A DNA stretch of 61,032 bases, filler included, from Sphacelaria rigidula (Eukaryota): NCBI GenBank assembly GCA_964200075.2. It is 9 parts of 9 records of this genome, joined end to end, with 100 filler letters (N's around TTAATTAATTAA, not from the genome) between each part and the next. Parts side by side here need not be neighbours in the genome. Positions count along the whole stretch, not along the records: positions 40,757 to 47,448 come from CAXNAA020018585.1; 8 more parts are not named here. The stretch is one strand, 5' to 3'. Positions 20,613-54,807 of the stretch are shown piece by piece (position 1 is the stretch's first letter; every line of letters begins with the position of its first letter). A model generated the notes under the pieces. It saw only the letters and a list, made by a program, of their open reading frames with translations, did not search any database and was not told where the DNA came from. Made by a program: the position numbers and the translations under genes.

Positions 20613-20642
20613 GGTCGTTGTCATAAATTGATGGTTTAGGAC

Positions 20643-20862
20643 CGCGACAAAATTACGCCGTTACGTTGAGATGGTAGTGATGATCTGGATAATGACCGGA
20701 GACACGGGGATGATACCCTGGCGTGTCTAGGAGGCGGTGCCTACGAGGGCACTCCTGATAATGAGAATATTGTAAAGACTGACAACTGAAACTGAGGCCA
20801 GTAAGACTGGGGAGTCCCTCAACAGTAGTGATCCACTAGTTCTTCTTCTGGCTGGCGTCACA
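20643..20862 (+). repeat. 5' LTR
   Basis: Aligns to 24839-25086 with substitutions and one ~28-bp indel. Confidence 0.9.
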
Positions 20863-23800: not shown

Positions 23801-24838
23801 GTGCTGACTCGAGGGCGGGCGATGTTGTTCCCCGCCCGCTCGGCGAAACGGTCTATGGGACCATGCCGAATGAAGTCGTTCATTTTGACTTCTTGTACGT
23901 GGTCGAGAGTGGCCCGCTAGCTTCCCAAAGTTTGTCGGAGGATGCTGGGTTTCAATACGTTTTGGTAATCGTTGATGATTTGAGCAACTTCGTGTCTGGA
24001 ACCAGTAGCAGCGTGCACTGCTGAATCGACTGCTGCATCTTTGCTAAATTGGTGCAAACCTCTGGGCGTGCCGCGTGCGTGGGTGAGTGATACCGCCACG
24101 CATTTCAAGAATGCGATCTTGGCCCGATTGCCAGAGGTTTTGCACGTTGATCACCAGTTTGCGGTGGCGTATTCTCCGTGGTCTAAGGGCACGTGCGAAC
24201 GCATGGTCAAGATAGTCGTTCGTGCTCTTTGCTCCATTCCTCTCGAGCAGCGTAGAGCGGTTTCCGAGTGGGTGGACGCGTTGCCTGCGGTGCAATGGGC
24301 GCTAAATACAGCGTATCATCGTCGTTACGATAGTGCGCCGCACCACGTGATGTTTGGTCGTGCACGTGGACTGGTCCATGGAGAGTGGTTAGGGCTCACC
24401 ACCCGCACGTGTTCGAGATTCAGAACATTGTTTCGGGTGGTGCTCAGACCGCCCATGTAGCTCGTCTGCTTTTTTATGCAGACTCGCAGCTTAACGTTAC
24501 GGTTGACATTAAGGACTTGTTCCAGCATGCTTTCAATCAGGGGCAATTTCAGATGGCTGGTATCGTCCGAGTGGCAGAAGCAGACGATCGTTCGTTGATC
24601 GCGTTGGTCGACTGGGTTCGTTTCGAAGTTGAGGAGCGAACGTGAGCCCTTTCAACGATATTTTTGAGGCCGCTCCGGAATTTCTTACGAAAGAGTTGCG
24701 TGAATTGCGCGTGACTCGTGCCGTTGCTGCTCGCATTACGAGTGAGTTTGGTATTCAGTTGTGACTTACTCATCGTTTTGGCGTTTTCTATGTTTTAGGC
24801 TTGTTGATCGATTTTCGTCCAACGCGCTTTGGGGGTGC

Positions 24839-27071: not shown

Positions 27072-28165
27072 ANNNNNNNNNNNNNNNNNNNNNNNNNNNN
27101 NNNNNNNNNNNNNNNNTTAATTAATTAANNNNNNNNNNNNNNNNNNNNNNNNNNNNNNNNNNNNNNNNNNNNTGTTCGACATTGCTATCAGGAGAGCCCC
27201 GAAGATGTCGAAGGGCACAAACATTTTCAGGGCTGCCGAGCGTTGCTCATCTCGCCGCGCCGCAAATGAAAAAACGAGAGGAAAATACAAGTCGATCGTG
27301 GGAAACTGACATTTTTTTGGCAACTTGACCGTCTGTTATTGAAAATACAAGCTTGGCCAAAAACGAAACCATGACCTACGGGAAACGCAAAGGTGCTCTG
27401 GAACCATCTCAGCGAGTAGAGCAAGTCATCCCAAGGTGTCTACAGCCGCCTAGCCCTCGTTTCGGGGGAAAAACGACGGAGAAGGACCAAAAATGCACTT
27501 GTCAATAAGTTGTACTTATTGATACATAGGAAGTAGCCTAAGAGGGGGGGAAAGTTGACTTCCGAGGGTGAAAAAAATTCTCCGCGTACGCAAGTTTTGC
27601 ACTATTCCACGTGCCTGGGGTGCAACGCTAAAAACAAAGTCCGAAGATTGATCCGTTACACTGAGAGCAAGTCATTTTCAGGCGAATCATCATAGCTTGT
27701 CCGACTCTTGGAACCTCTACACAGCCCCAACCTTTCAACTCAAGGAAATAAACGCAACATCCTCTCCCGCCCCCGTTCCCTCCGAATGAATGAAGAGTAT
27801 GCGTGTACTCGCGAAGAAGAAGTTAGACCGGTCCCGGTCACCGAAGCTTCAAATGGGTTCAAGTCTCCTAGGGCGCAGGTTGTCGGAGAAATCATGACAT
27901 CTCGCTTCCAAATACATACAAAAATTAGACGACTCTACTGCGTTGTACAGTAGTCAAATCGTTTTGTACCGTAAAATAACTTCTTCATAATATTGCTCTG
28001 TACTGTCCGCAATAATCTTGTAGTGCAAGGTCGCCTACTCACACGCATTTCCAAAAATGAACAGCGATAATCAGAAGCACTCACGACGACATGCAAGAAG
28101 AGCAAAAAAAGAGAGGCATGGAACGGAACAAAAGAGAACAATGAGTGAAAAAAAAAAAAACTTAC

Positions 28166-31100
28166 CCGAGTCAAACACCACGTCTTGATCGGGCTATCGC
28201 ATGCCGACCCCACACCGACACCACCACCGTGCTTGGAAGCCATGTCCATCCTGTGGTATGGTAAGCGATCCAGCCCGTTCACCCGGCTAACACCTCCACT
28301 CCACCTTTCCCATCCCGATATGCCGCCGCCGCTCACGCCTGCGGTGATGATCGGGTCCCTGCCAGTACTCCCGGGCCCGCTTCCCACTACAGAGGAGGCG
28401 GTGGACGCCGATGAGGAAGGCATAGCCTCGACTTCGTGCGGCAGGAGGGGCTGCCCTCCGGAATCCGTGTCGGATCGGGAATCATCTCCACCACCATAGA
28501 TGTGGAGGTGCTCGTTTTCTACTCGGAGGAACCCCCACATTGTCCTGGGGGGTTATTTTGTGCGTGTGTATGGGTGGCGGGGGGAGGGGGGAAGGGGAGG
28601 GATCTGGATTATGAATTGTGGTGAACACATAGAATCAATTCGTCCCTCACATTAATTTGCCTGTATGTTTGTTGCTTGGGATGCATGCACCGCAGTCACT
28701 CTTCATGCGCCGCGTAGCAGCGGCGCGCGCAGTCGATATGCTTTCCTCTTCTACAGCCAAAGAACAACAATGGCAGAACGAACAAGTGGCTCTTGTCCGT
28801 ACGGCACGGGCACTGGGAGGCGACAACCGGCATACCCGAGGCAGTTTCTTCCACCGAGAAATGGGCAACAGGCTATCTAGACCGGAAAACACGAAAACGA
28901 TATATCAAGGCAACGGAGGTGCGAAATTTTGACATGAACTGCCTCGTTTTGCATATACAAACTGCCGTTCCATGTCGGCAACGAGCAGCCCCCCAAAATT
29001 CAACCACAACTCTCAAAATCTATTTCCACTCGAAACCCATTCTCTCCAAAAATGTACAGACACGTGCATGTCGGCTTTCACAGCCGAACCACATATTTCC
29101 GGTCCAGCTATTCCCCGCCATCAAGCCAACTCTTCATACCATCGATCACAAATAGAGTCGATTTCTGGCACATATCTGAACATACCGCAATCGTTACTCG
29201 AGTCGCCCCCCTGCTCCCCCCCCTCCCTACCTACACTCCATCCCCGTCCCCGCTCCCGCGACTTCTCACCTTCGCATTATCTCCGCGGCAGCAATAGTAA
29301 GATTGAGGTAGTTCTGCACCGGCTTGGTAAACCACACGTTGTCTTCCGGTATCAAAGTCGTAGTCCACAGGAAGCGAAGCACGAGGTTGACCAAGGCCAC
29401 CGTGACGTAAATCCATTTCCGTCGGTACAGAAGGCAGGGTCGCAGCCGCAGCGACCGTCCATCCCTATGTTCGTGTCGCGCATATGTTCATAATAAATAA
29501 TAACATGGAGTGGAACATCAAAGTAATGTATAGAAAAAGGTTGGGTTGGGGTTTGGATTATTGCTTTTTGAGAAAGGTTAAGACAATAATATGGGCGAGG
29601 AGGGTGGCCGCGGACCCCCTCGTCCCCCCCCCCCACATGCACAACAGCAACAAACAACAAAATTGCACACGGGAGGAAAAACAACAAGAAAAAATTGAGT
29701 GCGTGAAATTAAACATACTTCGTATGTAGAACCCATGCATACACGTACACGAAACACACACACTACAGTAGCATACTCATACAGAAAGACGTACTGTAAC
29801 ACCATCAACCAGACGGCGACGAATTCCAACTGAACAGTCAACAACCAAACCACCATTGTGCACGCTGCGATTTCCACCGATCGTTCGTCGGAGCACGACG
29901 GTGCTATTTCATTGATGGCGCGGTAAAAAAAAACATGGAAATTCCCCGATGAAACACAGCTATTTCGGCAGTGGGACGGGCTCCACCCCCTCTCACATGT
30001 GAGACTCGCAAGAAACAAATATGCTTTTCTCGAGGGAGAGGTCCCGCATGTATCCAGTGACCCTATCCAACCTCACATGGAGACGTAACGCGCGCGCGTT
30101 CGGCAATGGCTTGCCTTCTACAACGATCTCTGCAACTCACCACTTCAGCAAGTCCCAATCCATAAAGATATCCCACGTGTACTGGTACAGCGTGGCGATA
30201 ACGAAGCACAGCACCCACAGGGGGCTCTTGTGCATGGCGATGGGCTGGAAGGTGCCGAAAAGCGAAACGGACATTGCCGTCGCGTACTTGAGTGCGTTGC
30301 CTAGATGTGGCCATCTATTTTGTTTGAACGAAAAACGAAGAGGAAAAAAAAGGGGGGGGGGGTTAATGAACACATACAAACACTGGGAAAAGTGAAGAAA
30401 ATCATGGGACAAATGAAAAATGAGCATAAAAACACAAGAACCAGCCCCGTCCACTTTACCTTGATTTTCCGTATTCCAACAAAGTACAAGATAATACAGT
30501 TGCAATTCGAACAAAAACAATAGCAAATCTCGAACCTTGATGAACGACGGCCATGCTCTCAAAGAAAGAAAAAAAAAAAAAACGAATGCACCGAACGGGT
30601 GGGATAGTGGGAGAGGCACGGGGAAAAAAATATCTCACCGATTGTCGTGATATTGCACAGATCGGTGGATTTTTTTTGTTCATCGGAATGATCGATGCGG
30701 GGGCCCTTTCCAAACGGTTTACGCTCTGCAGACGTTTTCTTCTCTCTCAGGGTTCGTACCTTTGCCTGGTCTCGTACGATCTCCGGAGATTCTGCTGGAA
30801 ACGCCACCACAGAGGCGCCGCCGTCAGAAAAGGCACAATCACCATGCTGTACCCGGTCCAATCCTGACGTATATATTTTTTGGTTCGTTGATTTATTAAT
30901 ATTAGATATTTTACGAACGAAGCGAAAAACGTATGCAACACTCAGAAGGATCTGCGATCAGAGTCACGACGTGTCGAACGCCAACACACTGAAACCCTAC
31001 CGGAATGAGAGACAAGGAAGACCAGTGGCAGGTGGCGGGAGGGGCGGAGCAACGCTCGAATCATCAATCCAAAACAACATGTATTCGTGCTCCTTTTATA

Positions 31101-32409
31101 TCCTCGTGCGTAGCCGACTTGCACCAGATCGGCACGATCAAACCTCGGAAAGATACAGCTACTCCCCCTTACTGGCCGCACCCCCCTCTTCCCCCCCGCA
31201 CCGCTGCTCTGTCTCGCTGCCCCTCTCTTGCCTCCCTCCATCTGTTTTACCGCCTCACGGTTCTCTCGGACGCCAAAAACTTCATCTCGAGTCGAATCGA
31301 GATCGAATTGCTTTTGAGGAAAGCTCACCTAGAATATACTTCCCCCCCTCCCCCAAACAGAATCCAATCGGATGGAGTATGACGCCAGCTTGCCAAGCAT
31401 ACAATGGAGACCGCACCTTTACAGAGTCGACGGATGGAGAGAAAGTCGGGTCCGACGTCGTAAGCCAGCCCCCCTTCACAAGGGAGGTGAAGTACACTAT
31501 GGAGAACGCAACGTCGATCATAACCTTCACCACGCTGCCAGGGACAACCGTCGCGAGCACAGGACCATCCATCGCATCACCACGGAAAGAGAAAAAAAAA
31601 AGAGGAGCAAAAAACACCAGGAAAGATTCCAAGGTCGAAAACGTATGAAGAAATAAGGACGGACGACGAGCACACAAGACGTTCGTGACACGGACTACTA
31701 TTACAGAGCATACGCACGAGAAACATCACTTCCATCACACTGGACCGTGTCTTGAACCCTATCATAGATAGTTTCCCCGCTCTCGTACTTATCCAAACCC
31801 CCAACCCTGTAGGGGAGATCCGGATTGTGAGCAAAGGGTCCACACGACAACGCAGGCACGGTTCCTTCAACCATGGGATCCTGGTGGCAGGCTGTGACGA
31901 CGATACGATACAATGCATCACCTGTGCCACCACGTATAATCCAGCCACAGATCCACGGTTCGGACGACTCATCGTCGGTTCAAATCACCAAATCCACGAT
32001 TTTTCAGACCCGACTGCTCGAAAGAGAGGAAAAAAGTTGGCCATTGGTGGGGGAAAAAAGTCCACGCAACTTTTGCGTCATTCCACATGCCTGGGGTGTG
32101 TGCGCGTACCTGGGTTGCAACGCTGAAAACAAAAGCCTGAGGATTGATTCGTGTAGTACGAATCAACGACACTAACATCAAGTAATTCGCAGACAAATCA
32201 TTGATTCGTACGGTACGAATCAGTCACACCAAAACCAAGTAACTCACAGACGAATCTTTAATTCGTCCGACCCTTGCATTGATCAACCTGCATACGCACC
32301 TCGTGAGGATATCGCCCACGTAGCCCTCGAGGAAGCGTACCTTGCCAAACGGGGATATTACCACCGTCCAAATGACCCGCAGCAGGGGTTTTCGCTCGGA
32401 CCAAGGGTT
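28166..32409 (-). CDS. EXS-domain membrane protein (XPR1/SYG1/PHO1/ERD1 family), partial
   Basis: Phase-compatible GT-AG exons: 32409-32300 (SPFGKVRFLEGYVGDILTS), 31534-31417 (VVKVMIDVAF), 30863-30760 (PLWWRFQQNLRR), 30314-30141 (WPHLGNALKY..LYQYTWDIFMDWDL), 29464-29270 (LRPCLLY..NLVLRFLW..EIMRR), 28544-28166 (TMWGFLRVENEHL). These are the canonical EXS motifs. Confidence 0.93.
31954..32276 (+). mobile_element. hAT-type MITE in an EXS intron
   Basis: TIRs CACGGTTCGGACGA / CAAGGGTCGGACGA; 8-bp TSD CACAGATC/CATTGATC; internal ~57-bp tandem duplication. Relatives at 56902-57156 and ~27585-27710. Confidence 0.8.
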
Positions 32410-33092
32410 CTGTTCCACACAGAAAAAAAAAAAAACACCAGATCGCGTCGGGGTGAAGAGGCGCGAGAAAATGGGAGCGGGGCGCACGTGAGCTACGTGA
32501 CAGTCGGGATGTGTCGTACGTCGTATGTAGAGTTTTGGGGTTCAAAGGGGCCAAATAGACGATGACAATCTTTTCCGTAGTCTCTCCTCGTTTTTTGTCA
32601 CTGATTATCGTGGGAACTATTCTTCTTTATATTTTTTCGTGTTTAGCTTGTATCGCGTTTTGTGAGTTTTAATCTGTTTTTATTTTTTTTATTTTGCTAG
32701 CCTGTGACCACGGAAGTCGTCCGCATCAGATGCCCAGTACGAATGTACCGCGCAGATATCGGAACGGTTTTTTAATGTGAAGACAACAAAACAGACAGGC
32801 TCGCACACCCATTCTGTCTGCAGGAATCCTATTTTAAGTGGGATAAACACGCGGATGCTCTGCTATTCGTCTCTCGTTGTTTTCGTATTTCGTTGTTGTA
32901 ACCGCTAGACACTTGTGGGAGCTCCTCGTGTGTATTTTGTTATATATTACTCGCTTCACCATACAGAGTACAGCACATGCGTGACCCGTACTAAATCACA
33001 TTTGTGGATGTTTGAGTCTGTGCGTGCTGCATTCTGAGTCCTGCAGACAATATTCCAGGGCTGTAGGTCAACATGAAATTACGTACTTGTAG

Positions 33093-33709: not shown

Positions 33710-33964
33710 GTTCGTGAGATTAGGCCTGGACGAGATATACAGTACATGTATGTCCCGTAGGTCAAGGTTTGAATCACCAGTATCCTACTGTAGTATACCC
33801 CCCCCCCCCCCTGGCTGTATGTCTCACCGCGGAGCACGGCAACGGCTTATCGGAAGCAGAAGGANNNNNNNNNNNNNNNNNNNNNNNNNNNNNNNNNNNN
33901 NNNNNNNNTTAATTAATTAANNNNNNNNNNNNNNNNNNNNNNNNNNNNNNNNNNNNNNNNNNNN

Positions 33965-36034: not shown

Positions 36035-36856
36035 GGGGGGGTGCACTTCTGATCTTGCATGCCGTAGTCATAGAACCATTGACTTCGCATCCCCACAAAG
36101 CCGGGACGGAGCACGCCAGGTTTTGCGCCGGACCAGGCTCGCACTCAATCACGAAGCGCGAAGCGCCGTGATGTATTCGGCGAGCCTATGAAGGGTGAGC
36201 TACATCCTGCTGAGATTGTTCGGCCCGAAGCGTACTGATTATCTTGCATTTGGATGACAGCCTCCAATGAGTTGCTTCATTTTCTGGTATCATCACTTCC
36301 AGAGACAGCCGCGGGTTATATATACACTGCCTTATGAGTGTCTCGCCATTTAAGCACTACGTGCAATAGTACGATCATCTCCTTTCAGCGGAGTTGAGGT
36401 CCTCCCACCCCGCACAATATGATTTATTAAAGCTCGACCACCATCATCGTTACCGCAACACAAAAAATGCAAGCGCGGAAAAAGAATGGGTAACCTGGTT
36501 GCCTAGCTTTCGCAGTGATTGACGTGTTTTACAGCGTCATCGCCAACCGACGCCAACCCCATAGGGGGTCCGCCCCTACAAAGCCGGGACTGAGCACGCC
36601 GGGTTTTCGCCGGACCAGGCTCGCAATCAATCACCAAGCGCGAAGCGCCGTGGTGTGTTCAGCGAGTCGCATGAAGGGTGAGCTGCATCCCGCTAAGGTT
36701 GTTGTTTGTTGTGTGGCCCGAGGCCTTCTGATTGTCTTGCATTTGGATGACAGCCAACAACGAGTTGCTTTATTCTGTGGTATCGCCACTTCCAGAGACA
36801 GCCACAGCTCACACACTGTCTCATGGGTGTCTCACCGTTTAAACACTACGTAGCAC
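36035..36856 (-). mobile_element. Two tandem RTEX-like LINE 3' fragments (family B)
   Basis: 36040-36400 and 36570-36856 are homologous. The minus strand ends ..WGCEVNGSMTTACK, then oligo-C. Confidence 0.75.
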
Positions 36857-37149: not shown

Positions 37150-40140
37150 TACTAGTGACGGCATCTCACTACTGCAATTTGCTGGCGCCATGATTGCCCT
37201 GGTCAATACGTTCTTTTCCATCCCCCAAGGGAATCATATACATGGCGTACGTCAAACGGTACTGCGAATCACCCCGCGGACAAGGAACGTATTGACTACA
37301 TCCTCACACGGCAAGATCACCGCGGGCTTGATCGCAATGTCACCGTCCATCCATAACCCCCTAACTCGCCGAACTCTGAGCGCAACATCGTCTGCGCCTC
37401 AGTGCAGCTCCTTGGTCGCTTCGCACACAACAGACCTAGACGAATCCCAATTGAGCGTAAATCCGATCGACAGACGGGAAATAATTTGTGACCCTGACAG
37501 ACGTGAGCAACTCCCCCAGCTCATCATCAGCGAGCTCAAACAGAATATACCTGGCGATACAGTTAGTTCACTGGCGACGAACTTTGCCGACGCGCTCTTG
37601 AGTGCCGCTGAAAAGGTGGTACCCCGTCCGACCCGAGAGCCACGTATACCGGGGTGGTTCGAGGATGCTGTCATCCGAACGGAGTTCGAACAGGTCTGGA
37701 ATAAGAAGGAAATGGCGAGATAGACGGTGCGACTGGGACCATCACGAAATAAACCCGCATGACCCACTTTGCAAGCAGCGTGCAAAAAGGTGAAATAGGT
37801 GATCCAAGTTGGGGTGGACAAATTTTCGGATGTGCATGCTAGAGATTCGGGGGAGTATACTCGAGCGGGGGACATGAGAGGATGATACAGACATCTCAAC
37901 GGAGGGTGGGGGCTGTCTGGACGACCAATCGAGAGTGAGCAGTGCATTCGAGATGAGGACGGCAATACACTGCGGGACAAAGGTTTGATCAGTGAGAGAT
38001 GGGAGCGGTACTTCTCCACATTGCGGAACGCCATATCGGCAACTATCGACCGAACCGTCATCGAGAAGTTTGCACAACGACCGACAGCGCTGTCACCAGG
38101 AGACCCACGAAGGCCGAGTAAAACTGAGGAGGCTCTGAGAGCTATGTCGGACGCCAAAGCAACGGGTCTGAATGGTCTGCCTGGTGACATCCTTAAGCTT
38201 GGACTGGACGAGGAGGCGTCGGAGATTCTGTGTCACTTCCACAGCATCGTCTCTGCGGTTTGGACATCTGGCGAGGTGCCACAGGAATGGAAAGATGTCA
38301 CTGTCAAAGTGCTGCACAAAAAAGAAGACGAGTGTGGAAAGTAAAGGGACGCTTCATTTGTGTCACATGCTGCTAAAGTTCTCCCCAACATTGTCGCCAA
38401 CAGGCTCGGTAATCTTTGTGAGGAACGAGATGTCTTCTCGGAAGAGCAATGCGGATTCAGGCGCCAACAATCGACCACGGACATGATGTTCGTAGTACGC
38501 CGACTTCAGGAGTTGGGACGGGCGAGCAACGTCCCACTGAACGTGTGCTTTATCGATCTGCAAAAAGTCTGCGATTCCGTAGACCGCACGCTCCTGTGAG
38601 AAGTGCTTGCTCGGTTCGGAGTCCCGCCGTGAGTGATCGTGATCATATGTATGTTTCACGACGGCATGCGAGCTCGGGTACAGCTAGATGGTGACGAACT
38701 GCCAGCGTGGTTCCACGTCTGCCAGGGACTCGTACAAGGTTGTATTTTGTAACCGCTGTTGCTCAACATCTTCGGAGCAGCCTTGGTCGACGTGATCGTT
38801 CAGCGGTTCGCGGTGGACCCAGTCATCGTCTCTGACTCGATTTTTCTCGATGATGCGCCAAAAGGTGATGGTGATGAGCCCCTGGAAGAGACGCCGCTGG
38901 AAATTGTGCGACGCGCGGTGTGGGCAATGCTTTATGCGGACGACGCTGGCATAGACTCGAGGACTGCAGACGGCCTTGCTCGGATGATAGTCGTGATAAT
39001 GGTGACCTGTCAGGAAGTCGGCCTGACGGTCTCCGAGAGCAAGACAGAGTCCATGCGCCTTTGGTCAGTACCCAGTCCCACGGAGGCCGCCTTGCACATC
39101 AAAGTTGCCGGTCAACGGTATAAGCAGACGGGGAAGTTCGTCTACTTTGGTGATGCTTTCAGCGCGGACGCAAAAATGTCCATCGAAATCAACCGCCGTA
39201 TCAGCGCGGTGTGGGTGCGTATCTGAAAATATAGCTCCCGACTATGCGATCGACCCAACGCCCAGCTATCCTTCAAAGTCCGGCTGCTTAAAGCAGAGAT
39301 AGTAGAAGCTCTGGTGTTTCGATGTGCCACATGGACGTTACGTTCCGTTCTCAGGACTTCGACAGTCTGCGCACTGCCCATCACAAGCTCTTGCTGCGAG
39401 TGGTTGGACTCCGCGGGAAAGATCGAAATGGCTACAAGACTCTTTCGTACAGACCGATGCTCGAGATGAACAACTGCGAACGTGTCGAGACGAATATCCG
39501 ACAGTTTCTACGATAGCCCCCCCCCAAAACCAGCCCAAAAGTGTCACGAAAAAAAATGGCCGTGCAGCGCCTAATGTTTGGGTTCAGGCTGCATGAAGCG
39601 CCTCATGTTGGCGACATTGGCTAGAACGAACCCAAACGTGGGACTTCCCAGCTGCTTGTTGTGCCCGGCTTTTCCCATTTCGATTCACGTAAAGATTTTG
39701 CCTCCCAAAACTATGCACTTTCGGGGGGGGGCTACCGTAGAAAGTGTCATCCGCAAACGTCAACTCTGGTTCGCCGGGGGCATTTGCCTGGCAGGAGGAC
39801 ACACGCCTTCCTAGACGCATCATGAACGGACGGTTAGCCGCACGAGGGCCCAAGGAGGCTGGCCGCTCCCCCAAGCGATTGGAGGAAAACCTTCAGGGGA
39901 ACCTACGTGCACTACGGGCTGTTGGGCACAAAGGAGCACGACAGAAATGGTTGGTGCACGGTGTAGAGGTTAACGATGCATACGATTGGGTCACTGCGAC
40001 GAAGGACATGGGCTAATGGCATGTAGGAGTCGAAAAGGGAGCGGAAGAGTTTGAGGACACCTTGCGACGCGCGGACAAACGAGGATCGGGTCACCGTCAC
40101 AAGCGAGAGGTTGCTGCGTCGAGGGCCGCCAATCGAAGGA
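37150..40140 (+). mobile_element. Decayed 5'-truncated RTE-clade LINE (end of APE endonuclease plus RT)
   Basis: ALVNTFFS..IDYILTRQ (APE end); ERWERYFSTL; KATGLNGLP..VPQEWKD; EEQCGFR..STTDMMF..FIDLQK; GLVQGC; AMLYADDA; FVYFG; IRKRQLWFAG; RLPRRIMNG. Numerous stops and frameshifts. Confidence 0.95.
39500..39748 (+). mobile_element. 249-bp MITE with ~26-bp TIRs and 4-bp TSD (ATCC)
   Basis: GACAGTTTCTACGATAGCCCCCCCCC ... GGGGGGGGGCTACCGTAGAAAGTGTC; ATCC at 39496-39499 and 39749-39752. Excision restores RTE codons E-T-N-I-R-K-R-Q-L-W. Confidence 0.92.
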
Positions 40141-40635: not shown

Positions 40636-40756
40636 CTTTTTTTTTTTTTTTTATTTNNNNNNNNNNNNNNNNNNNNNNNNNNNNNNNNNNNNNNNNNNNN
40701 TTAATTAATTAANNNNNNNNNNNNNNNNNNNNNNNNNNNNNNNNNNNNNNNNNNNN

Positions 40757-41032
40757 AATCTTAGCAGGGTGCAGCTCACCCTTCATTCGACTCGCCGAAC
40801 ACACCACGGCGCTTCGCGCTTGGTGACTGAGGGCGAGCCTGGTCCGGTGAGAACCCGGCGTGCTCCGTCCCGACTTTGTAGGGATGCGAAGTCATTGGTC
40901 TGATGACTATGGCATGCATGATCATGAGTACCCCCCCCCTTCTGAGATGCTTCGTCTCGAAAGGGATGAGTGATTGATGGCCAAAGGAGTAAGGCAAGCA
41001 ACAACTGAGTACGCCCCACCCCCCTCCCTCTC
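40757..41032 (+). mobile_element. Stacked RTEX-like 3' ends (family B then family A)
   Basis: Family B tail ends GAGTACCCCCCCCC at ~40939; family A tail CGTCTCGAAAGGGATG..AAGGCAAGCAACAACTGAGTACGCCCC follows. Confidence 0.8.
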
Positions 41033-41048
41033 CATTGCTTGAGTGCAG

Positions 41049-44000
41049 CTGTGATACCGTTCCAGGGGGCGCTGGGCATAGACATCGGCACAAGCTACCT
41101 CCGGGCGGGCGTGTATGTCAACGGTCGAGTCGAGATTATTTCCAACGCGGAAGGCAACCGCGCGACGCCAAGCTTTGTCGCGTTCACAGACACCGAAGTG
41201 CTTACCGGCGAGGCTGCTCAGGTTCAGTTTCGTTTGAACGGTAAGAACACGGTCTTGGAGGCCAAGCGACTCTTGGGGCTTGGGGTCAGTGATACCTCCT
41301 TCTGTGATTCCGTCTCCAAGCGCTGGTTAGCTCACGTTGAGTGGTCGGTCAGTGACGGAGGATTTCCATCACGCGTGCCCAGGCTCACGACAAAAATGGA
41401 CCACAAAGGCGAGTACCAGGGCTATACACCTGAGGAGCTACTTGCGTTTCAAATCGCCGGGGTGAAGGCGGCCGCTGAGGCTCACCTTGGTATGACGGTG
41501 AGATGTCCGGGAGCCCATTTCGTTGACCAGTGCACAGTGTACCTTTCCTTGGTTTCTGAACATTGAGATGCATACAGTGCAGCGATACAACTGACCCCCT
41601 TTGCCATAGCTTCCGTTCAACCCATAGCCGAGTATGAACAACTTCAAAATGGGCTCGTATTTACAATTTCCCATCGTATTACCTTGGGATAATGATACTA
41701 TAGATCATCCGCTGTATCTGAACAGTATCACGCACAGCTTTTCGTGCAATGGTGAATGGCGGTTATTACCGCTCCCACTACCGTAAGAGTACTCTCTCCA
41801 CAAACCTAGGTTCTGAGGGAGATCATTGTACGATTGTTCCTGAAATATTGTCCCCGCGGTGTATCGGGAGTACAGGGTACTATAGCATCGTCCAGAATTG
41901 ATACCCAGGGTAATTCCCTGCACCATCCGGTAGTACAGCACTGGAAGCGAGGTTGCGCGGTTCATTGACTCTCCGGTGCAAAGCGAAACCGGGCGTGATT
42001 GGTTCTGAACGTGGCGAGTGTTTGCTCAACATCAGGACCGTCTGGTATATTTGATGGCATTGTGCACTATAAGTTTAGTCATGCAGCTGGTATGACGAAT
42101 TCTCTTCGATCTCTGATTTTCTATTTGACACACAACTGCCTGGCCCACTTGCTCCAGCGTTGCATGCACCCATGAACGCCCCCGCGCACGCGGGGGGCGG
42201 GGGTTCCGCGTGTTGTCAACGTGACCGCAACGCACCAAATTCCAACCAAGATGAGGGTTCACGTGAGATTTTTTTCGAAATGTTCTCCTGGAACCTCCTC
42301 CAAGCTTGTATGAGACGCGAAGCGGCAAACACCCCGAATCTCGCATCGTAATCCTTGCACAATGGACGTACACAGGAGTTACTGATTGATCGGGAGAGTC
42401 TATCGGTGAATTTTGTGCTCCCCGGTAACCCGCCGAGCCCCCCCCCCCCCCTCCCGTGCGCCCCGTCCAACGTATGGCAGGTTGCGGATGCCGTGGTTAG
42501 CGTCGGTTCGGCGTACGGCACAGCCAGAATATTGGCGACACGCAAGGCGGTCGAGAAGGCCGGGCTCAATATGATCCATTTCATGCGGTCACCTGATGCT
42601 GCCATCTTAGGCCACTCATTGGAGCATGGATCCGCAGAGGAAAAAAATGTGTTGATATTCGATTTAGGGGCGGGCGAGCTAAACGTGTCGGTCCTGACTG
42701 TGGAGTATGGAATACACGAGACGAAGGCACATCGCGGGTCTAACGTGGGTGGAGTGGATTTCGACAACAACCTCATGGATGACGTCCTGGTGAGCGACCA
42801 TGTCTGCTGTTTACGTGCGTTGTTTTCCCTTGGCAGGGTATTGCTACTGACCACTTGTCTGCAGTATTTTGTTTTTGTCCAGGGCGACGTCAGTTTGTGG
42901 ATCATGCACGACGCAAGTCACACATCGGTAGATCCACGGTACAGCTTGCAGGCGTGCAAGCGTTCGCAATGGTTGTCCCCGTGTTGATCATTCACTTGTT
43001 TTTTTTGGAGGTGGCGTGCTCTCATAGGACTCGCCCACTTTGCGTTTCATGCGAAGCACTTCAATTTTGGAGCAGCACTTGTCATGCCGTCCAGGGCCTG
43101 AACGAGGAACTACAAGAGGGTGCTTTCACATTTACATTTTTTTTATCCCGCGCGCTCGTGGGGTGCTGATCACGAGCGCAACTGTCAAAAATGCGGGTAC
43201 AATGTTTCATCACTGAGGGCTGGTATCAGGGGGTTGAGGCATGCGGAGAAATAAATGCATTGCTTCTGGTCCCGTTTGATCCATCACGCATACGCTACGG
43301 ATCGCACTTTGTTCCCTCGTTATGTGAACACTCAACGTAGGCCAAGGCCCGACGCAGCGGGAAATTGCCGGAAAACCTGGACATGGTGGCTGTGCACCAG
43401 CTCCGCTTGTTATGTGAGCAAGCGAAGCGCCGACTCTCGAGCTTTCCCTACGCAGACATCACTTTCGATCCTAGACTGCCGGGATTGAAGTCCAACTCGC
43501 GATCCTTCGAGATCTTTGAGACGAGGGTGTCTCGAGATGCCTTCGAGGCCATGATCGCAGACCGGATTACAATGTTTGACAGTGTCGTGCGGAAGACTCT
43601 GACCGACGCTGGAATGACTGTAGGACAGATCGAGGAGGTCATTCTTGTCGGCGGGTCTACAAGGATTCCGAAGGTTCAGCAGGTCGGTCGGTGTGCTTGT
43701 GTGTTGTATGCCCCTTTCCGTGTGTTTCCTCACGGAACGAAGCCAACAAGCGTAATACAATGCCGGAAAGGGGAATAGATGTGGCACGCAATTTCCCTGG
43801 TGCCCAAAAGACTAGCTCATGAACTCTGATTGACCTATTTTCCTTGCTTGACGTCGAAGCGAAAAATATATAATCAACTGCCGCGCTTCAGTAAGAGGTC
43901 GCTAAGCGCTGGTTCGCTCCCGCCTCCCCGAACTGCATCTATGAAAAGCATGGTCAAATCGCTCTCCGGGTTGCTCAATCCTGCCGCCCACGCTCAATGT

Positions 44001-45217
44001 TCATCTGGAGCTATCATTGTTGTGATCAGGGTTATCTTGCTGCCTTGCTCCATTTAATCCCGTCAGAGACGGCGCTCCGTCACGGGTGAAACTGTATGCG
44101 TCCATAACCTAAAATCAACACTCACGCATGAGTAAAGCCCTTTGCAGGAGCCAGTCTCTCTCAGTAGGCACGTGACTTCATTGCTGTGTCCAGTACGAAA
44201 AACGGGACTCCATGCGTGAATCGTGAAAGGTATTCGGCGCCATGGTCCTGTGCCTTGTACATGCCAACTGGTTAGTTGACTCCGGCCGTGGATCGTGCGT
44301 TGTGCGTGACAGATGTTGGTGGATATATTCGACGAGGGCCGAGTTCATCAATCCGCAAGTCGAGACGAACTGGTGACACGTGGCTTGGCCTGTAAAGCGG
44401 CGATAAACTCTGGACAAACTGGGGAGGTGCTCGATTCCTTCCTCATGCTCGCAGTCTACCCGTGTTCTCTTGGAGTGGAGACGGCGGGCGGGGTCATGAC
44501 GAATGTCTTGAAGAGGAACACGACACTTCCCGCGAAAAAATCGCGGAGTTTGACCACGTACACAGATAATCAAACAAGCGTGGTGATAAAGGTGTACGAG
44601 GGCGAGCGCACCATGACCAGGGATTGCACACTTTTGGGGACTTTTGTCTTGGATGGTATTCCACCCATGCCCAGGTCGCAGCCCATAGTGGAGGTGACGT
44701 TTGACGTGGACGCCAAGTCTGAGCTCTGTGTGTCTGCCACGGAGCTTTCCACGGGCAACAAAGGCGAGATCATCATCAACGAAGAATCATATGTGAGTGA
44801 TCCCCAGTCAATATTACACGAATACTACGGGTGCCCTAATGGTGAAGGAGTTTCGGGCCAACTCGTCTAGATTTCGACACCATGGCAGGCGTGTTCTTAA
44901 CTCATGTATGCCTGTATTTCCCACCTCAGCTGGTGATGACAGGCTTCTTGTATATATATCATTGGCAAACGCCTCGTCCTTCACCTGCCCCTGAGCGATC
45001 TGATCGTTATGATTCATCCCCACGCATTCCCATACAGGGTCGGGACTGTCCCGACGGAGGAATACTAGCGACTGCAGTAGAACCGACTGGAGTATACCCA
45101 AGCGGAGACGAGCCACCGGTCTACGAGGAGAGCCACCAAGAGACACCGCCACCACCGCCAAGTCATGCATCAAGCAAACGCAAAAACCCCGCGACGAAGT
45201 GGTTCAATCGTAAATAG
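41049..45217 (+). CDS. HSP70: Atypical Hsp70-family protein (NBD plus SBD-beta, lidless), 5' exon missing
   Basis: Phase-compatible exons with no internal stops: 41049-41497 ([26 protein letters not shown]), 42481-42789 ([17 protein letters not shown]), 43341-43682 ([24 protein letters not shown]), 44313-44792 ([25 protein letters not shown]), 45038-45217 (novel tail, TAG). Confidence 0.92.
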
Positions 45218-47170
45218 TACAACGACCTTGTGGCAACTCCATTGCCCACGTTTCTCCAGTGACTGCTGTCACATTGCTCGCCGCATTGACCTATTCTTTC
45301 TCCATCTATGCCTTAAGGTTGGTATGGTGTCAGACCGGTTGTTGTATGCTACGCGGGGAAGATGGAAGGCGGTGAAACTAGCGCATGCTTGTGATGTTTG
45401 CCGTGTGCTGTTATATCCATTTCGTGGTGAGTACGGTTGACGCGGATACCGCTTTCGATGTTGTGGCTTCCACGATCATTCGCGAACGACACGGGATCGA
45501 TGCGGCCGTCGTATTTCGTGATAGCCCCCGGTCCGTGTTCCGCTGCGGTGGGTCACAAAACCATTTGTTATGTGTGACAATAACGGGGTGTCAATGGGAT
45601 ATCGAAAGCGGGTGGCAGTGGATGTTTCAAGACGGGTGCCTCCTAGACCAACCATTTATAATATCTTTGCGGTCTCGATTCTCGAGATCTTGTGTCTATT
45701 GTGCTGTTGACGTGGCGTACTTCGAAATAGTTTTGGTGGGTAATACCGTGTGACAAACGCGAAAAAGCCTCAATAGCTGTAGCCCGAAACCATGTTTTGC
45801 GCGGGCATACTTGTGAGCTGAATTGGCTTTTGCGCTCTGCGCTTGATCCCCCAATTTCAGAGGACGAATGGGGAAGAGAAATAATCCAGTTGCTCTGACC
45901 CTTGTACTGAGGGAAGGAACGTTGTGTGTGCTCATCTGGTGAAAATCATTGATTGACATGGACCGTTTAGAAGGATAGGCATTCAAACTCCGTATGTATA
46001 CCAGCCTTCTGGTGATACTGTTGAAACCAAGTACTGGGTTACACGGTCGAAATATGCCGAAAATCAATACTATCCGTACCCTACTGACTGTAATAGCATG
46101 ACAGTCGATCGGCGTAGAGAACATGTCGTTTGGACTCCAACAATTGCCCCTATTTCGCGACAGCAGTGGTGGGAGTGCGCTGTAGTGCAGGCCACAAGGG
46201 GACGTCTGAGTTCTCGGGTGTGTCGGTGTTGAGGATGGTTGTAAAATCGTACACGCGGTATCTGCCATATTATTCGCGCGACAGGAGTCGCTACCCGATT
46301 CTTGTATATTAATCCGGGTAAGTGGGTATGAGGTCGGTTGCTGCGGGTATCCGGGAGTCGGAAGAGATTCTCGTACTTGTTTTTGGAGAACATCTTCGAG
46401 GGATGGACGTTGGGTGATGAACGGTGTGTACACGGGAAAAAGGCGGGATACACCGTATTCAGTAGAGAGGGGCACGAGAACTACTTCACCTCAATTTTGG
46501 AGAAAGTAGCGGAGCCAAGGATACATCGTGCAATATTTTACTTCAGTAGGAGTAGGCACTTTGTGTAACTTAGACGGTCCCTCCGAGGGCCGAAGAAAAC
46601 GTATAGTAGCTACGCACAGGGAAATCCCCAGGAGGACAGGAAGTTACAACACGTGAGTACGGAGTTATCCGCAGCTGTTTCGTCATACTATAGGGTCAGT
46701 ATACCGCGCGTACTCCCGTCTGCTCAGAGGTGATCACGGTAACAAACTGCACAGAAGTCGCAAGACCTGTGAAAGCTAGAGAGTTTGATTTTTATCAACT
46801 GCATCACTTGGGTCTCCCTTAGCTTCGCTGGGTTCGTCATCGTACTTCGAGTCTCCGAGTATCCAGTGTTGAGATACAGGCAGCCATTACAGCGGCGGAA
46901 GCGGCCTTTCACTCCTGCGTGCGCCACCTGGGGCAAATGCAAGTTGTAGCTACAACACGGACAGCTTTACAACATGTGGCGTAGCGATATAGCGCATAGC
47001 GAGGAATGATATTCCGCGTACACGTTGGCCGCAGGTACAAGCGGCTGCGTTCATGATGTGGCGAACTGCATAGGACGCTCGAGCAACAGAGAGCTAAGTC
47101 ATGCATGCCATGACCCAGCAACGCATGTTCTTCGATACCGACCGCTTCGCGCCCGGCGTAGACGTCATCT

Positions 47171-47318
47171 TTCTGGGCGGTGGCGAAGGTATTGCGTGTG
47201 ATCCCGTCCATGTAGGTGGAATCGAGCTCGACGGGGTGAGCTGGGGAGTCCACCACGTCGAGCTCGATTCCACCTACGTAGACGGGATCACGCGCAATAC
47301 CTTCGCCGCCGCCCAGAA
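47171..47318. repeat. Long near-perfect hairpin (68-bp arms, 12-nt loop)
   Basis: 47171-47238 versus 47251-47318 reverse complement: 5 mismatches, three of them G:U-compatible on the + strand. Confidence 0.92.
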
Positions 47319-47639
47319 CAGTATTTTGCAGGCCACTTACTGGCCCACGTTTGGTATTTGTGTATTGAAACTTTGTGTGGGACCTGTGGCGCAATCACGC
47401 CGTCACGGTTGAGTATATAGTGGATCCTGGATGATGACCAGGGGACAANNNNNNNNNNNNNNNNNNNNNNNNNNNNNNNNNNNNNNNNNNNNTTAATTAA
47501 TTAANNNNNNNNNNNNNNNNNNNNNNNNNNNNNNNNNNNNNNNNNNNNCATCATCCACAGGATGCCCTTGTCTCCTGGTCATCATCCAGGATCCTACACA
47601 TGCTATATCTACTACGCCTTGGTGTATTTTGGCTACATC

Positions 47640-50600
47640 CCCCATTTTTCGAAACCGATCCAGGGTCCAGCCCATTCAAGGTTGAATCGTGGGTACTCAC
47701 TATAGATCCTACGTGTCCATCCCTGGTTGAGTTTTTAATAATGCTCGGCCATATTCCACCAGCAACGACGAAATGGACATTCATGTCTCCCGGGTCCGTG
47801 ATTCGGGCATCCCCAGACAGATCATTATCATCCGGCGGCTGTGGTAAACGACACAACATATCCGCATTCGCGTTCACGCGTCCTGGCTTGTACTTGATTT
47901 CATAAGTGTACGCACTTGAAACGTCGTGCCAACGCTTAACCCTCGGAACTTTTTCTGCAAGGCTCAATGAACTTCGCAAAGGTTGATGATCAGTATAAAT
48001 CTCAAACGGCACTCCGTAGAAAAGTGGTCTGTTCTTCTTGATGGCCCACACAATAGCCGCTGCCTCTAATTCGGACACACTCCAACTTCTCTCGCCGGGG
48101 CATGTTATCCCCGTGAAGTTGTTCCACCACCGCGCCCAGACCATCCAGTGATGCATTCGTGGTAAGCATGAATGGGCGTTTCCCCAAAGCTGCATCTTCA
48201 AAGTGTGGAAATGCTAAAACGTTCGTACCGGTCAAGGATAATAACATCTCCTTGGCTATCGATTCGTGTTCTTGAGGAAACTGAAAACGAGTTCCTTTCT
48301 TCAACAAACTTCTTAAAGGTTTGAGCCTCGCAGCCATTCGCGGAATAAATTTACGGTAGTACCCCAAACATCCCAATAGCGATCTGAGCTGGGATACTTC
48401 AGACGGCATTGGCATCTTGATTAAAGCCTGTGCCTTGTCCTGATCAGGAGAAATTCCCTCAGCCGATATGTGATGCCCTAGAAATTTCGTTTCTGCCATC
48501 CCAACATGTGCCTTTCTCGGTGCCAATTTCAGGTTGGACTTGGTCAGCCGTTAAAGGAGACCCTCCAAGCCATCTACATGTTGCCTGCCTGTTCTACGGT
48601 CGACATCGTTCCAACCCATCACATATTCTCGCCATGATGGCCTGGAACCAACCTGGACTTCCACTGCACCCCGTCGGTATAACTAATCATTCATAAAGAT
48701 CACTCTGCGTACCAATCGCCGTTAACGGGATTGATTCTTGGTGTATAGCCACATTGAAGTACCTGGAAGTGATGTCCAATCATGAAAATATGTTGGCACT
48801 CCCCATTTCATCCAAGAGTTCCTCAATGATCGGAATGGGTAAAACCTGAACTATTGTACTGCCATTAAGCTTTTTGTAGTTGCACGTAATCCGAATGGAC
48901 CCACCCGCTTTGTTCACTACTACGAGCGGGCTACTCCAGTTCGAATATGATCTCCTCAAAATACCTGCTGCGAGCATGCGATCAATTTCAACTTGTACTT
49001 TCTTCTGTACTGCTGGGTTATGACGATACGGGTGCTGTTTGACGGGCCTCGTCCCCGGTTGAAGTTCAATTCAAAATGGATCCACCATGCAATACCCCAA
49101 ATCCATCTTGTCCTTTGAAAATCGATGTTAATTTTTGCACAAAAGCTCCCCCAAATTTTCAATGTCCTCAACTGGCCAATGTGCGCCTTCCAACCCGAAC
49201 CCTATTCTTCGCATATGTGTGGGAAGCTTCACCCACATATCTTTAAATGCTCGTTGTTGTTCATTTGTCAAATCTGCCAAGACCGGAGGTTCTTCTAGAT
49301 TTTGGTCAACCGTGAGTATTTCCTCGGGTTTCAGATCCTTAGTTTCAGAGATCTTGACGTCCTCCAGAAAGCATGGTACCAAAGGTGCCCCAGCAGAACC
49401 TAGAGTGGTGTTCGGATGGAACATCTGTCCTTCTAAACCGGTAAAACGGCGAGGGATAATGGATTCACCTGCTTCTATGATAATCTCCTGTGAGGATCAA
49501 TCTGAATCCAGAGATACATAATAACATCCACTTTTGATGGGCGTTGCGTCCCTGTTACATAGTTTGACCGGAATACATGACAATGTATCAAGTCGTATCA
49601 TATCATGGGATCCATTGCACATCACTGTAACTTGAGCTGTTGACGATTGCGGTTCCACAAAACCAATAGCCTTGCGGACTTGTTCCGCAAACGCACGATG
49701 AACAGAGTCGATCTTGTTTCCTTGCAAGGTCATGACTATTTCTCGTCGGTTCACATCACGATATGTTCTGACCGGAAATAATCCAAGGCCATCACGTCCG
49801 ACTGGAATGTCATAATTCATTGTTCCATTAGGTACAATATGGGCGTGAATTGCTAAACATGCTCGNNNNNNNNNNGAACTGACACTTGTGGGTTGGGTCT
49901 TCTAGGCCACAGTCTGATATTTGACCGCACCTGTGAAAAGATACACAACGGGATACCATGAAAACCACCCCAAGATGCTGGGTCTACCTCTCGGATGCCT
50001 TCAATGGTGGCTGCCCCGACGTCAACCATTTGTTTTTATATTGAGTAATGAATACACGTCGCCGAACTCCCCGTGTCCATCAAAGCCTTAACTTTCAAGG
50101 TTCTAGTCGCCTTCGGGCCCGAAAATATTTGCGCCACGGTCGAACTTCTCCTCCCCTTACTTGGCGAATTTCTTCCAAGTATGGCCCTTTCCTTTCTCGC
50201 GCAACCTGACTAGATACTGTCGCTGGTACGCAGGCGGGGACAGGTTCTGTAGGTAAACGACTCCCAGTTTTCGGATCCAGCGCATACTTTCGGCTGGTGT
50301 CCCGCTTGGGTCGTTACCATTATCTACTACTACCCTACGCACTGCGCAACACGAAGATTAATCACGATCTGTTAGTCGTGAAGTATCGCGGGATTCTTCA
50401 ACGATTCTATCGGGGAAATCAATAGTCATGCAAGCCTGCACATCGTTACCGTTGTCAGATGATCCTCTTTCGTGCACGGTTGCCAAATCGAGAGTATGAC
50501 CAGCCACGCTTGATCCTCCCTGACCTATATTACTGTTGCCCCGACTGCTGCGAGCTAGAAAGCTATACACACCGGAATCTCTGGTCGGAGAAATTTCATT

Positions 50601-53600: not shown

Positions 53601-54807
53601 CGAACCGACTCATGTGGGCATTATATCTGTTTTCGGACTGCTATACGGCTATCATGTGGGCGAAATTGCTGCAAACGATCCCAATAGTGTATTCACAGCC
53701 CTGCTCCATTCTACCGCCTCTAGCAATTCTGGTGGGATGTCCAAAACGTCTGCCATCCGGAAACCAGCATGATATAGTGATACTAGCCCGCAAGACAGTG
53801 AATTCGAGCCACTACACGGCCCCCGGTACATGTGCCTGAAGCCGATGCGGGCTGCGGTGAATTAGTCACAACCGAGTAAGAACGTTCATGCCGGTTGCAT
53901 GGGATTGCGTGGGCTACGTATTTGAAATTCTAATTGAGAGGCAACATCACATCCTGAAAGCGCAATGTCCAGGTCACGCAATCATGTCTTAGCTAATCCT
54001 TGTCAAATGTCCAAAATTGTACAAAACCCCGAGGCGTGCTGGGACGTCTCGTAAAACGAAGCAGCCTTGCTTCGTAACTTCTGCCATGCTCCTCGATTTC
54101 AATATATAGTGGAGGCAACTTCCTACTCGGCGGGTGCCGTGGTGTAAAACGCCGACCGGTTCCTGCGGGGGAATGAACTCCATGTGACCCCCCCCCCCGG
54201 CCCCCCCCGCCCCCCCCCCGCCCCCCCAGGCAGCCGTCCANNNNNNNNNNNNNNNNNNNNNNNNNNNNNNNNNNNNNNNNNNNNTTAATTAATTAANNNN
54301 NNNNNNNNNNNNNNNNNNNNNNNNNNNNNNNNNNNNNNNNGGCCGTCAGTAGTGTGCGCTCCTTTTCCGGTACTCGTCAGTCATCTCCACTTTGGGCCGC
54401 TGCTGTTGCGGGCATCCGCCTCTTTCCTCTGTTCTTGGGTTTGATGGTGGTATCCTCGCCTCGAACCTTCCGCTGCAATAGAGCAACACCCCCCCACACA
54501 CATCGGCAGACTACAAGTTGTCTACTGTCTGTTGTGCGGCATTTGTATGTACACTGTGCTTGTGTGTTGTCCCATCTATTCTGGACGCCGGTCTAGACCT
54601 TTTGGTACATGTGGGCGCACCAGCCGGCGTCACACACACAGAACGTCCGTGTTCAGGTTCTGAAACCCGAAAAACACTGCAGAACTGCCGTGTTGTCTGG
54701 TGTTGAGTGTGGTACTCTACACTTCACATACCACTGCAGAGTTGTCTTGTGCTGAGTGTACCACGCTGTACTTCAAATAATGGGGTCATCTTTTGAGCAG
54801 TTTTCGA

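Follow-up and report, generated by a model that had tools for sequence, protein, structure and literature searches.

The window analysed here is a stretch of 61,032 nucleotides from Sphacelaria rigidula, along the whole of which all positions below are counted, and the gene in question lies in the block at 40757-47448, record CAXNAA020018585.1. This block carries on the + strand an Hsp70-like gene: five exons join into 585 open codons with no internal stop, as found from stop-to-stop open reading frames (ORFs) and checked by script, while the four introns are all GT..AG and in phase 0, and the frame ends with a TAG at 45215-45217. The Pfam profile HSP70 (PF00012) matches exons 1 to 4 with E-values of 4.7e-24, 9.5e-17, 1.7e-17 and 1.5e-40, respectively. 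These four exons cover positions 2-499 of the 599 of the profile in order, a range that spans the nucleotide-binding domain (NBD) and the beta part of the substrate-binding domain (SBD-beta), and a chance match to the Hsp70 family is not an issue. The fifth exon, which encodes the tail of the protein, returned no Pfam family. A tblastn search with P0038, the 657-amino-acid canonical Hsp70 of the brown alga Ascophyllum nodosum, also recovers four exons, at 58, 44, 46 and 38.5% identity.

From the 5' to the 3' end, the exons divide the Hsp70 fold as follows. Exon 1 (41049..41497, +), the first known coding exon, is internal: it is entered in phase 1 and has no start codon. It encodes lobe I of the NBD, with the phosphate-1 loop GIDIGTSY, the EAKR motif containing K71, and an 8-residue insertion in subdomain IB. 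A model drawn from ORFs alone began this exon at 41066, and the spliced contigs described below extended its start to 41049. After intron 1 (41498..42480, +, 983 bases), exon 2 (42481..42789, +) harbors the rewired segment of the NBD, with P147G, R155I, E175S (codon 42589-42591) and the motif DLGAGELN at 42661-42684, which includes T204E and D206N. Intron 2 (42790..43340, +, 551 bases; joint 42788>43340, cut +1) is followed by exon 3 (43341..43682, +), where the motifs of NBD lobe II are retained and a second 8-residue insertion is located in subdomain IIB. Intron 3 (43683..44312, +, 630 bases, donor GTCGGT; joint 43679>44310, cut +3) leads to exon 4 (44313..44792, +), which completes the NBD and goes on to encode the interdomain linker FLMLA (44439-44453) and the whole of SBD-beta. 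Finally, intron 4 (44793..45037, +, 245 bases; joint 44792>45038) precedes the last coding part, exon 5 (45038..45217, +), which encodes a proline-rich tail of 59 residues and the TAG, in place of the helical lid and the EEVD terminus. Read-through translation indicates that retention of intron 4 would put a stop after 14 further codons. The 3' untranslated region (UTR) is unspliced and extends at least over 45218..46904 (+). To note, antisense ORFs lie opposite exons 4 and 1 (44181-44786 and 40925-41326, both on the - strand) and match the Pfam family PF10712, “NAD-specific glutamate dehydrogenase”, with E-values of 1.6e-15 and 3.8e-05. We take this family to be the known antisense frame of hsp70 genes; these frames stay open despite the divergence of the Hsp70.

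Transcription and splicing of the gene could be followed in assembled contigs. Eight runs from two studies carry the locus in the run index, and four of the eight were compared over 40757-47448: X1 and X2 from study P1, X8 from study P2, and X5. In X1, X2 and X8 the gene is present as one spliced contig each, of 5157, 5160 and 5141 letters and a depth of 33-40. These contigs cover 41048-41496, 42480-42788, 43340-43679, 44310-44792 and 45038-46783/46904, with joints at 41496/7>42480/1, 42788/9>43340/1, 43679-82>44310-13 and 44792>45038; there are 0 other letters, each skipped part is bounded by GT..AG, and the depth in intron bins is zero. In the DNA-like run X5, the locus is covered by two colinear unspliced contigs (40994-42437 and 42438-46731) that show none of the four joints, contain intron 1, and have an even depth of 22-30, as expected for single-copy DNA. 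No letter difference is listed in X1, X2, X8 or X5 between 40902 and 46753. The spliced contigs are read as mRNA from two studies, and all four predicted junctions, including that of exon 4 to the tail exon, are therefore observed. The preliminary description of this gene, made from the letters of the stretch, had left these junctions to an RNA check and had envisaged that the gene might not be expressed, or that exon 4 might be spliced to a canonical lid/EEVD exon; what was found is a spliced contig of ~5.15 kb in three runs from two studies, exon 4 leading into the tail exon each time.

The 5' end of the gene lies elsewhere. The spliced contigs enter the block at 41048, directly after an AG at 41047-48, and the exon therefore begins at 41049, with no ATG ahead of the NBD. 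They carry 1709, 1833 and 1802 further letters 5' of this position, which contig comparison did not place within 40757-41047, where 291 letters at most would fit. Thus, the coordinates and the stop-free frame of the originally proposed five-exon model stand, while 41049 is not the start of the gene: at least 1.7-1.8 kb of transcript lies further 5', and a larger protein may therefore contain the Hsp70 module as its C-terminal part. The N-terminus may be encoded by a short first exon that follows a long leader, or may add up to ~600 residues. At the other extremity, the contigs stop (3' ends at 46783-46904) where a repeat sets in, and both contig ends are therefore probably limits of assembly. 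Between exon 1 and the start of the block lies a high-copy repeat (40757..41000), just 5' of the exon and within the upstream intron, as judged from contig depth and repeat copies: the summed contig depth in the bin 40757-40980 reaches 4.8e5-4.6e6, against 22-40 over the gene, and further copies are found at 36035-36217 and 36574-36700. The window as a whole is composed of nine equal blocks of ~6692 bases, joined by eight identical 100-base linkers (44 N, TTAATTAATTAA, 44 N) that recur every 6792-6793 bases, at 6694-6793, 13487-13586, 20280-20379, 27073-27172, 33865-33964, 40657-40756, 47449-47548 and 54241-54340. At the block starts 20380 and 40757, repeat copies are cut and have no continuation beyond the linker, be it read as inserted or as overwriting 100 bases; the block before that of the gene may therefore not be its neighbour in the genome.

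The NBD has been altered at the residues on which hydrolysis and coupling depend. Hsc70 numbering follows from aligning exon 2 with chains of Hsc70, including PDB chain 1ATS; the best-scoring of these chains include engineered mutants, and 1ATS itself has a glutamate at 204. The substitutions in exon 2 comprise P147G, Y149A, F150Y, N151G, D152T, R155I, R171H, N174R, E175S, T177D, G202A, T204E, F205L and D206N. Alignments with brown-algal, oomycete and other Hsp70s add a linker FLMLAV in place of LLLLDV, DAKS in place of DANG, the two 8-residue insertions, and a deletion of one residue ahead of an NVGG motif. The catalytic set E175/T204/D206 and the GGG phosphate-2 loop of canonical Hsp70 are consequently not found (E175S, T204E, D206N, G202A), nor is the canonical allosteric relay formed by P147, R155, N174/T177 and the linker aspartate, every member of which is substituted. 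Conversely, the motifs GIDIGTSY (D10, T13, Y15), EAKR (K71) and EQAKRRLSS, residue D199 and the adenosine motif GGSTRIPK are kept, and the hydrophobic core of the linker, FLML, is preserved. When invariant columns are defined from ten canonical proteins (eight eukaryotic Hsp70s and two bacterial DnaKs), the protein keeps 82 of the 147 in the NBD, 65 being changed, and 40 of the 52 in SBD-beta, pocket motifs included. These alignments bear out the preliminary description in what it had listed, namely T204E, D206N, the equivalents of DnaK P143, R151, R167 and E171, the linker D to A change and the passage from DANG to DAKS, every one of which is present. They bear it out also in the claims that the hydrolysis and coupling residues are replaced together, as seen against Hsc70 chains and other Hsp70s, and that the nucleotide-binding parts D10, T13, K71, D199 and GGSTRIPK are kept.

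SBD-beta has remained close to that of cytosolic Hsp70s. It is 63.1% identical (70/111) to that of P0038, and its best solved match is Hsc70, with an E-value of 1.9e-45. The ranking of PDB matches places cytosolic Hsc70 first (157 bits), followed by BiP (130), DnaK (121), mitochondrial Hsp70 (119) and Ssb (109), in agreement with the conserved, cytosolic-type SBD-beta first proposed. After this domain the resemblance ends: tblastn with the lid of P0038 (residues 507-657) over the whole window gave no match at E<=10. The 59-residue tail opens with GR, which aligns to the start of helix A (GRLS) in canonical proteins, and the rest of it is unrelated. It contains 11 prolines, a PPVY motif at 45113-45124, a PPPPP run and a basic end terminating in NRK, with no EEVD, and it has no usable match in ESM Atlas. 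The lidless architecture without EEVD, and the tail with its PPxY, PPPPP and basic end, are thus as first described, the junction of exon 4 with the tail exon in three contigs adding to the lack of a lid match in the window. The link then drawn from the PPxY to a WW-domain (Nedd4-type) ligase is unsupported: the motif is single, and when the tail was shuffled 100,000 times, 6.2% of the shuffles contained a PPxY.

Several observations indicate that the frame has been maintained. In a neutral drift simulation started from the coding sequence of the gene itself, with 1000 runs per divergence level, none of the runs was stop-free at 55% amino-acid divergence (mean of 12 stops), as compared to 1/1000 at 30% and 88/1000 at 10%. 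The GC content at third codon positions (GC3) is 0.64, above that of the introns (0.49-0.51) and of the 3' UTR (0.50). Because neutral runs acquire stops, and in view of GC3, most of the divergence happened under selection for an open frame, as the preliminary description had held of an intact gene; a more recent loss of constraint is possible.

The origin of the protein was approached by phylogeny and by searches for relatives. The nearest full-length protein is the canonical Ascophyllum Hsp70, with 47% identity over 528 residues. In an LG+G4 tree of 24 rows, among which there is no Ssz1/HSPA14 and from which the divergent protein P0169 (see below) was left out for a long-branch warning, the protein falls inside the stramenopile cytosolic Hsp70s (support 100/99) and inside the ochrophytes (96/93). 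The best tree joins it to the Phaeophyceae with weak support (61/95), and plant, fungal and animal canonical Hsp70s lie outside the stramenopile clade. Its end branch measures 2.89, against a median of 0.12 (~24x). The gene is thus most likely, as judged from this placement, a lineage-restricted paralogue of stramenopile, probably brown-algal, cytosolic Hsp70. Its position inside the stramenopile cytosolic proteins argues against orthology to the ancient Ssz1/HSPA14 lineage: a clear orthology of this kind, which the preliminary description had considered, is not what the tree gives, the protein being nested at 100/99 among stramenopile canonical Hsp70s in a set without Ssz1/HSPA14.

No orthologue emerged from four large protein searches, in keeping with the lineage-specific character proposed at the outset. 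With exon 4, none was found among 5.8 billion proteins, at the longer lengths (1550 matches among 2067 candidates, with 49-60% identity among the 120 matches listed); with exon 2, none was found by HMMER among 1.84 billion representatives (6644 matches, with 30-50% identity among the 150 listed); and with exon 3, none was found among 200 matches from 673 candidates (34-43% identity for the 120 listed). Searching with a profile built from the exons and P0169 gave P0169 and then canonical Hsp70s only. Six short fragments scoring at the top (P0003, P0004, P0012, P0020, P0034, P0055) proved canonical, with an LLLLD linker, DANG and lid helices; three of the six, complete at the C-terminus, end in EEID/QEVD, while P0012 and P0034 run into out-of-frame sequence. 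To note, the ORF of P0012, an ENA gene call of canonical brown-algal type on a 485-kb contig, starts with MLVDYF where exon 4 of the present gene starts with MLVDIF, which hints that the canonical parent gene may possess an intron at this position. Paralogues of Hsp70 that are divergent or truncated occur commonly in eukaryotes, and the exon 2 matches include many of them. One of the candidates, P0357, a 546-residue fungal protein suspected to be Ssz1-like, turned out by alignment to be another degenerate canonical-type Hsp70 and was left unused.

A possible companion is P0169, a 544-residue lidless degenerate Hsp70 that forms a singleton cluster and is encoded on an ENA contig of 3360 bases. 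Both proteins share the one-residue deletion with NVGG (DTHLGG in canonical proteins), the absence of the lid and the loss of the linker aspartate. They differ in that P0169 is 40.6% identical to the present protein, as compared to 59% to canonical Hsp70, and keeps E175, T204 and D206. The two group together at 97-98 in the SH-aLRT (Shimodaira–Hasegawa-like approximate likelihood ratio test), with a warning of the tree tool that long branches meet, and the grouping may be real or a long-branch effect. It is suggestive of P0169 as a co-founder of one family with the present protein, and the profile search added no further members.

How such a protein might work can be sketched from what is described for DnaK in the accessible part of PMC12406271. 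There, no side chains other than those of T11 and K70 touch the gamma-phosphate; the Mg waters are held by D8, E171 and D194; and a T199A substitution makes the ATPase activity fall strongly. From P143, which works as a switch, the signal passes to R151 at the interface, itself in contact with D481, while the linker residue D393 touches N170 and T173, and a D393A protein cannot reach the ATP-bound state (PMC12406271). In DnaK numbering, the residues changed in the present protein are E171, T199, D201, P143, R151, N170, T173 and D393, and the sensors T11 and K70 are kept. The replacements therefore affect the Mg-water shell and gamma-phosphate residues (E175S, T204E, D206N, G202A), the proline switch (P147G) and the interface arginine (R155I), as well as both sides of the linker contact (N174R and T177D in the NBD, D to A in the linker). 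By a slight balance of the evidence, the gene is read as a single-copy, transcribed, lineage-restricted and fast-evolving Hsp70 paralogue, whose product would be a hydrolysis-impaired, lidless client binder with NBD and SBD uncoupled; these properties are reasonably inferred from the residues. The NBD would still bind nucleotide and hydrolyse it poorly, and linker and SBD-beta would no longer dock on it, which would leave the two domains uncoupled. Hydrophobic client segments would rapidly enter and leave the near-canonical, lidless SBD-beta pocket, and the protein would serve for holding, competition or recognition independently of ATP, not as a cycling foldase. As EEVD is absent, it would offer no docking site for TPR co-chaperones of the Hop/CHIP type.

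A number of points weigh against this reading of a hydrolysis-impaired client binder. Hsc70 T204E and the E175/D206 mutants retain a reduced but measurable ATPase, and K71, T13, D10 and D199 are kept in the present protein. “Pseudo-ATPase” may thus overstate the loss, and “dead” is too strong. The known exons do not include the N-terminus of the protein; no run is on record as RNA, X1-X4 and X8 being tagged just “RNA? (a guess)”; and a minor lid-containing isoform may exist, since contigs drop rare isoforms. The extreme branch, the repeat- and transposon-rich setting and the loss of 65 invariant NBD residues also fit a decaying duplicate. Finally, the identity to brown-algal Hsp70 (44.4% in the NBD and 63.1% in SBD-beta, Fisher p 0.0008) is matched in direction by that of bacterial DnaK to the same brown-algal Hsp70 (51-53% and 64%, p 0.017-0.05). 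The asymmetry between the domains is therefore not evidence of selective relaxation, and its use as proof was dropped.

Four other explanations have to be set beside the favoured one. A substantial minority possibility is a multidomain protein in which Hsp70 forms the C-terminal module and an N-terminal region of up to ~600 residues would set the function; such a region, if present, would alter the functional reading of the module. The 1709-1833 further 5' letters, assembled as unique sequence outside the block, and the entry into exon 1 in phase 1 with no ATG before the NBD speak in its favour. So does the existence of natural N-terminal Hsp70 fusions, of which the representatives contain P0145 (a protein kinase with a lidless Hsp70), P0217 (TPR repeats) and P0240 (RCC1/thaumatin), as does the range of 469-1130 residues given for Saccharina HSP70s in the accessible text of PMC13312973. 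The extra 5' sequence may, however, be an untranslated leader, and the boundary of exon 1, at about residue 1-2 of canonical Hsp70, also fits a short first exon of the “M..” kind. On the + strand of the preceding block, which may not adjoin, a codon-usage scan (ORFs of at least 50 codons) with Pfam found no coding-like ORF besides retroelement pieces. It is rather unlikely that the gene is instead a transcribed duplicate on its way to losing function. Such a copy of cytosolic Hsp70, young and lineage-specific, would still be spliced and open but under relaxed constraint and without a function in its own right, as with many truncated T1 copies in plants. The lack of an orthologue in four large searches, the end branch of 2.89 against 0.12, the 65 of 147 invariant NBD columns changed, catalytic ones included, and the repeats and retroelement fragments on both sides of the gene would all be expected of it. 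Up to ~10% of amino-acid divergence could have accrued neutrally and stop-free (88/1000), and truncated T1 copies of plants are described as diverse, with transcripts hard to detect, in the part of PMC10687569 available. Against this stand 585 codons open at ~55% divergence, a level at which 0/1000 simulations are stop-free (1/1000 at 30%), the GC3 of 0.64 as compared to 0.49-0.51 in introns, four splice-site pairs that are intact and in use, the 40 of 52 invariant SBD-beta columns kept with their pocket motifs, and the assembly of the same contig in runs from two studies.

The two remaining explanations turn on what the altered NBD and the tail still do. A still-cycling Hsp70 with altered kinetics would hydrolyse ATP via K71, D10 and D199, the tail or an N-terminal domain replacing the functions of the lid and the co-chaperones. 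The retention of K71, T13, D10, D199 and the adenosine motifs, and of the linker core FLML, is consistent with it, and the kept K71 and T13 (K70 and T11 in DnaK, according to the part of PMC12406271 consulted) mean that ATP sensing and some hydrolysis may persist. The pseudo-ATPase holdase of the preliminary description is in this respect only partly upheld: the catalytic and coupling residues are changed, but with K71 and T13 in place the predicted loss of ATPase may be overstated. A full cycle nevertheless appears quite improbable with several layers altered at once (E175S, T204E, D206N, G202A, P147G, R155I, N174R, T177D and the linker D to A) and no lid to trap clients; in DnaK, D393A alone blocks the ATP-bound state and P143 and R151 relay the signal, as the same source has it (PMC12406271). 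An adaptor, in which the PPxY tail would recruit a ubiquitin ligase with WW domains (Nedd4-type) to the clients that SBD-beta holds, is highly improbable. The PPVY does lie in a proline-rich, probably disordered tail, and EEVD, the docking site for CHIP-type ligases on canonical Hsp70, is absent; yet the motif falls within what the 100,000 shuffles give by chance (6.2%), no orthologue was found in which it could be compared, and no paper joining Hsp70, lidless and PPxY was found among the best 10 of 133 retrieved. Beyond the favoured client binder, a bolder proposal can be put forward with low confidence. The protein would be a catalytically crippled lidless Hsp70 of independent brown-algal origin, serving as the client-recognition module of a larger lineage-specific protein, with an N-terminal region of up to ~600 residues providing the activity and the tail the docking. 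It would thus be a convergent counterpart of Ssz1/HSPA14 in which ATP is a structural ligand.

The surroundings of the gene are dominated by repeats, with a few other coding features elsewhere in the window. Very high-copy repeats flank the gene on both sides (40757-41000 and 46581-47448), and loose ends of poly-C are found at 40936-40939. Retroelement fragments lie at 23332-24021 (+), 38753-39223 (+), 39741-40016 (+) and 47554-48213 (-). Their matches include an H2C2 integrase (E 2.8e-06), a weak RVT_1 below the Pfam cut-off (E 2.4e-04) followed by an apparent LINE (long interspersed nuclear element) ORF2 tail, and RT_RNaseH (E 3.3e-14). A multi-exon gene of the EXS family (PF03124) is located at 29269-32541 (-), wholly within one block, with profile pieces 89-135, 139-192, 140-252 and 260-317; two of its pieces, at 30140-30634 and 30750-30941, overlap in the profile. 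At 10522-10851 (+), an ORF matches the head domain of PolyA_pol (E 3.9e-09), and ~1 kb downstream of it a 365-residue ORF (11728-12822, +) with no Pfam family ranks second in the window for coding-like codon score. The region 16001-24000 is unlike the rest of the window in its strongly positive GC skew (+0.14 to +0.29) and in an AT skew that changes sign.

Among known systems, canonical cytosolic Hsp70 (HSPA8/Hsc70, Ssa, P0038) is the parent family: the protein is nested among its stramenopile members and has the same NBD and SBD-beta architecture. It differs from them by the absence of the helical SBD-alpha lid, of the G-rich C-terminal region and of EEVD/EEID, as well as by its changed catalytic and allosteric residues, its two 8-residue insertions and its ~24x branch. 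Ssz1/HSPA14, of the ribosome-associated complex, is similar in outline, with an atypical NBD and no lid. In the portion of PMC10687569 available, its NBD is described as binding nucleotide without ATPase activity, and its SBD-beta as present while both SBD-alpha and the domain at the C-terminus are lacking. The present protein is set apart by its placement, in a tree without Ssz1/HSPA14, inside the stramenopile cytosolic Hsp70s (100/99), and its SBD-beta is near that of Hsc70. The Hsp70T proteins of plants and green algae represent a comparable kind of derivative, lineage-specific and cytosolic, without EEVD and lid, as far as the same source describes them: lidless type III forms of T1 are proposed to be holdases, and T2 forms have an atypical NBD (PMC10687569). 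The resemblance is in kind only. Judged by that description, the present protein differs from them in its stramenopile origin, with plant Hsp70s outside the clade, in combining a lidless architecture and an atypical NBD in one protein, in its proline-rich tail and in a possibly extended N-terminus. Given the stramenopile placement, common descent with the plant T1/T2 lineages is unlikely. In brown algae, Saccharina possesses 14 HSP70 genes, encoding 469-1130 residues, six of which belong to the cytosolic clade; the Results on this family, as available in PMC13312973, do not describe a counterpart of the present protein. A literature search on truncated or lidless brown-algal Hsp70 returned nothing on the subject, as judged by title or abstract. 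The protein is a new, independently derived variant among the already known lidless or atypical Hsp70s.

For annotation, the case calls for caution: with no orthologue found in the large protein searches, and a 5' end beyond a repeat and a block boundary, such a gene may be missed or truncated by automated pipelines. If functional, the gene would constitute a natural experiment on the Hsp70 machine, in which hydrolysis shell, proline switch and interface arginine have been altered jointly with the two partners of the linker contact. With the sensors of the gamma-phosphate kept, and likewise the pockets for adenosine and for the client, it would show what an Hsp70 fold can do when uncoupled from the ATP cycle. 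It would also mean that stramenopiles arrived independently at the “atypical Hsp70” solution, which is known from Ssz1/HSPA14 and plant Hsp70T.

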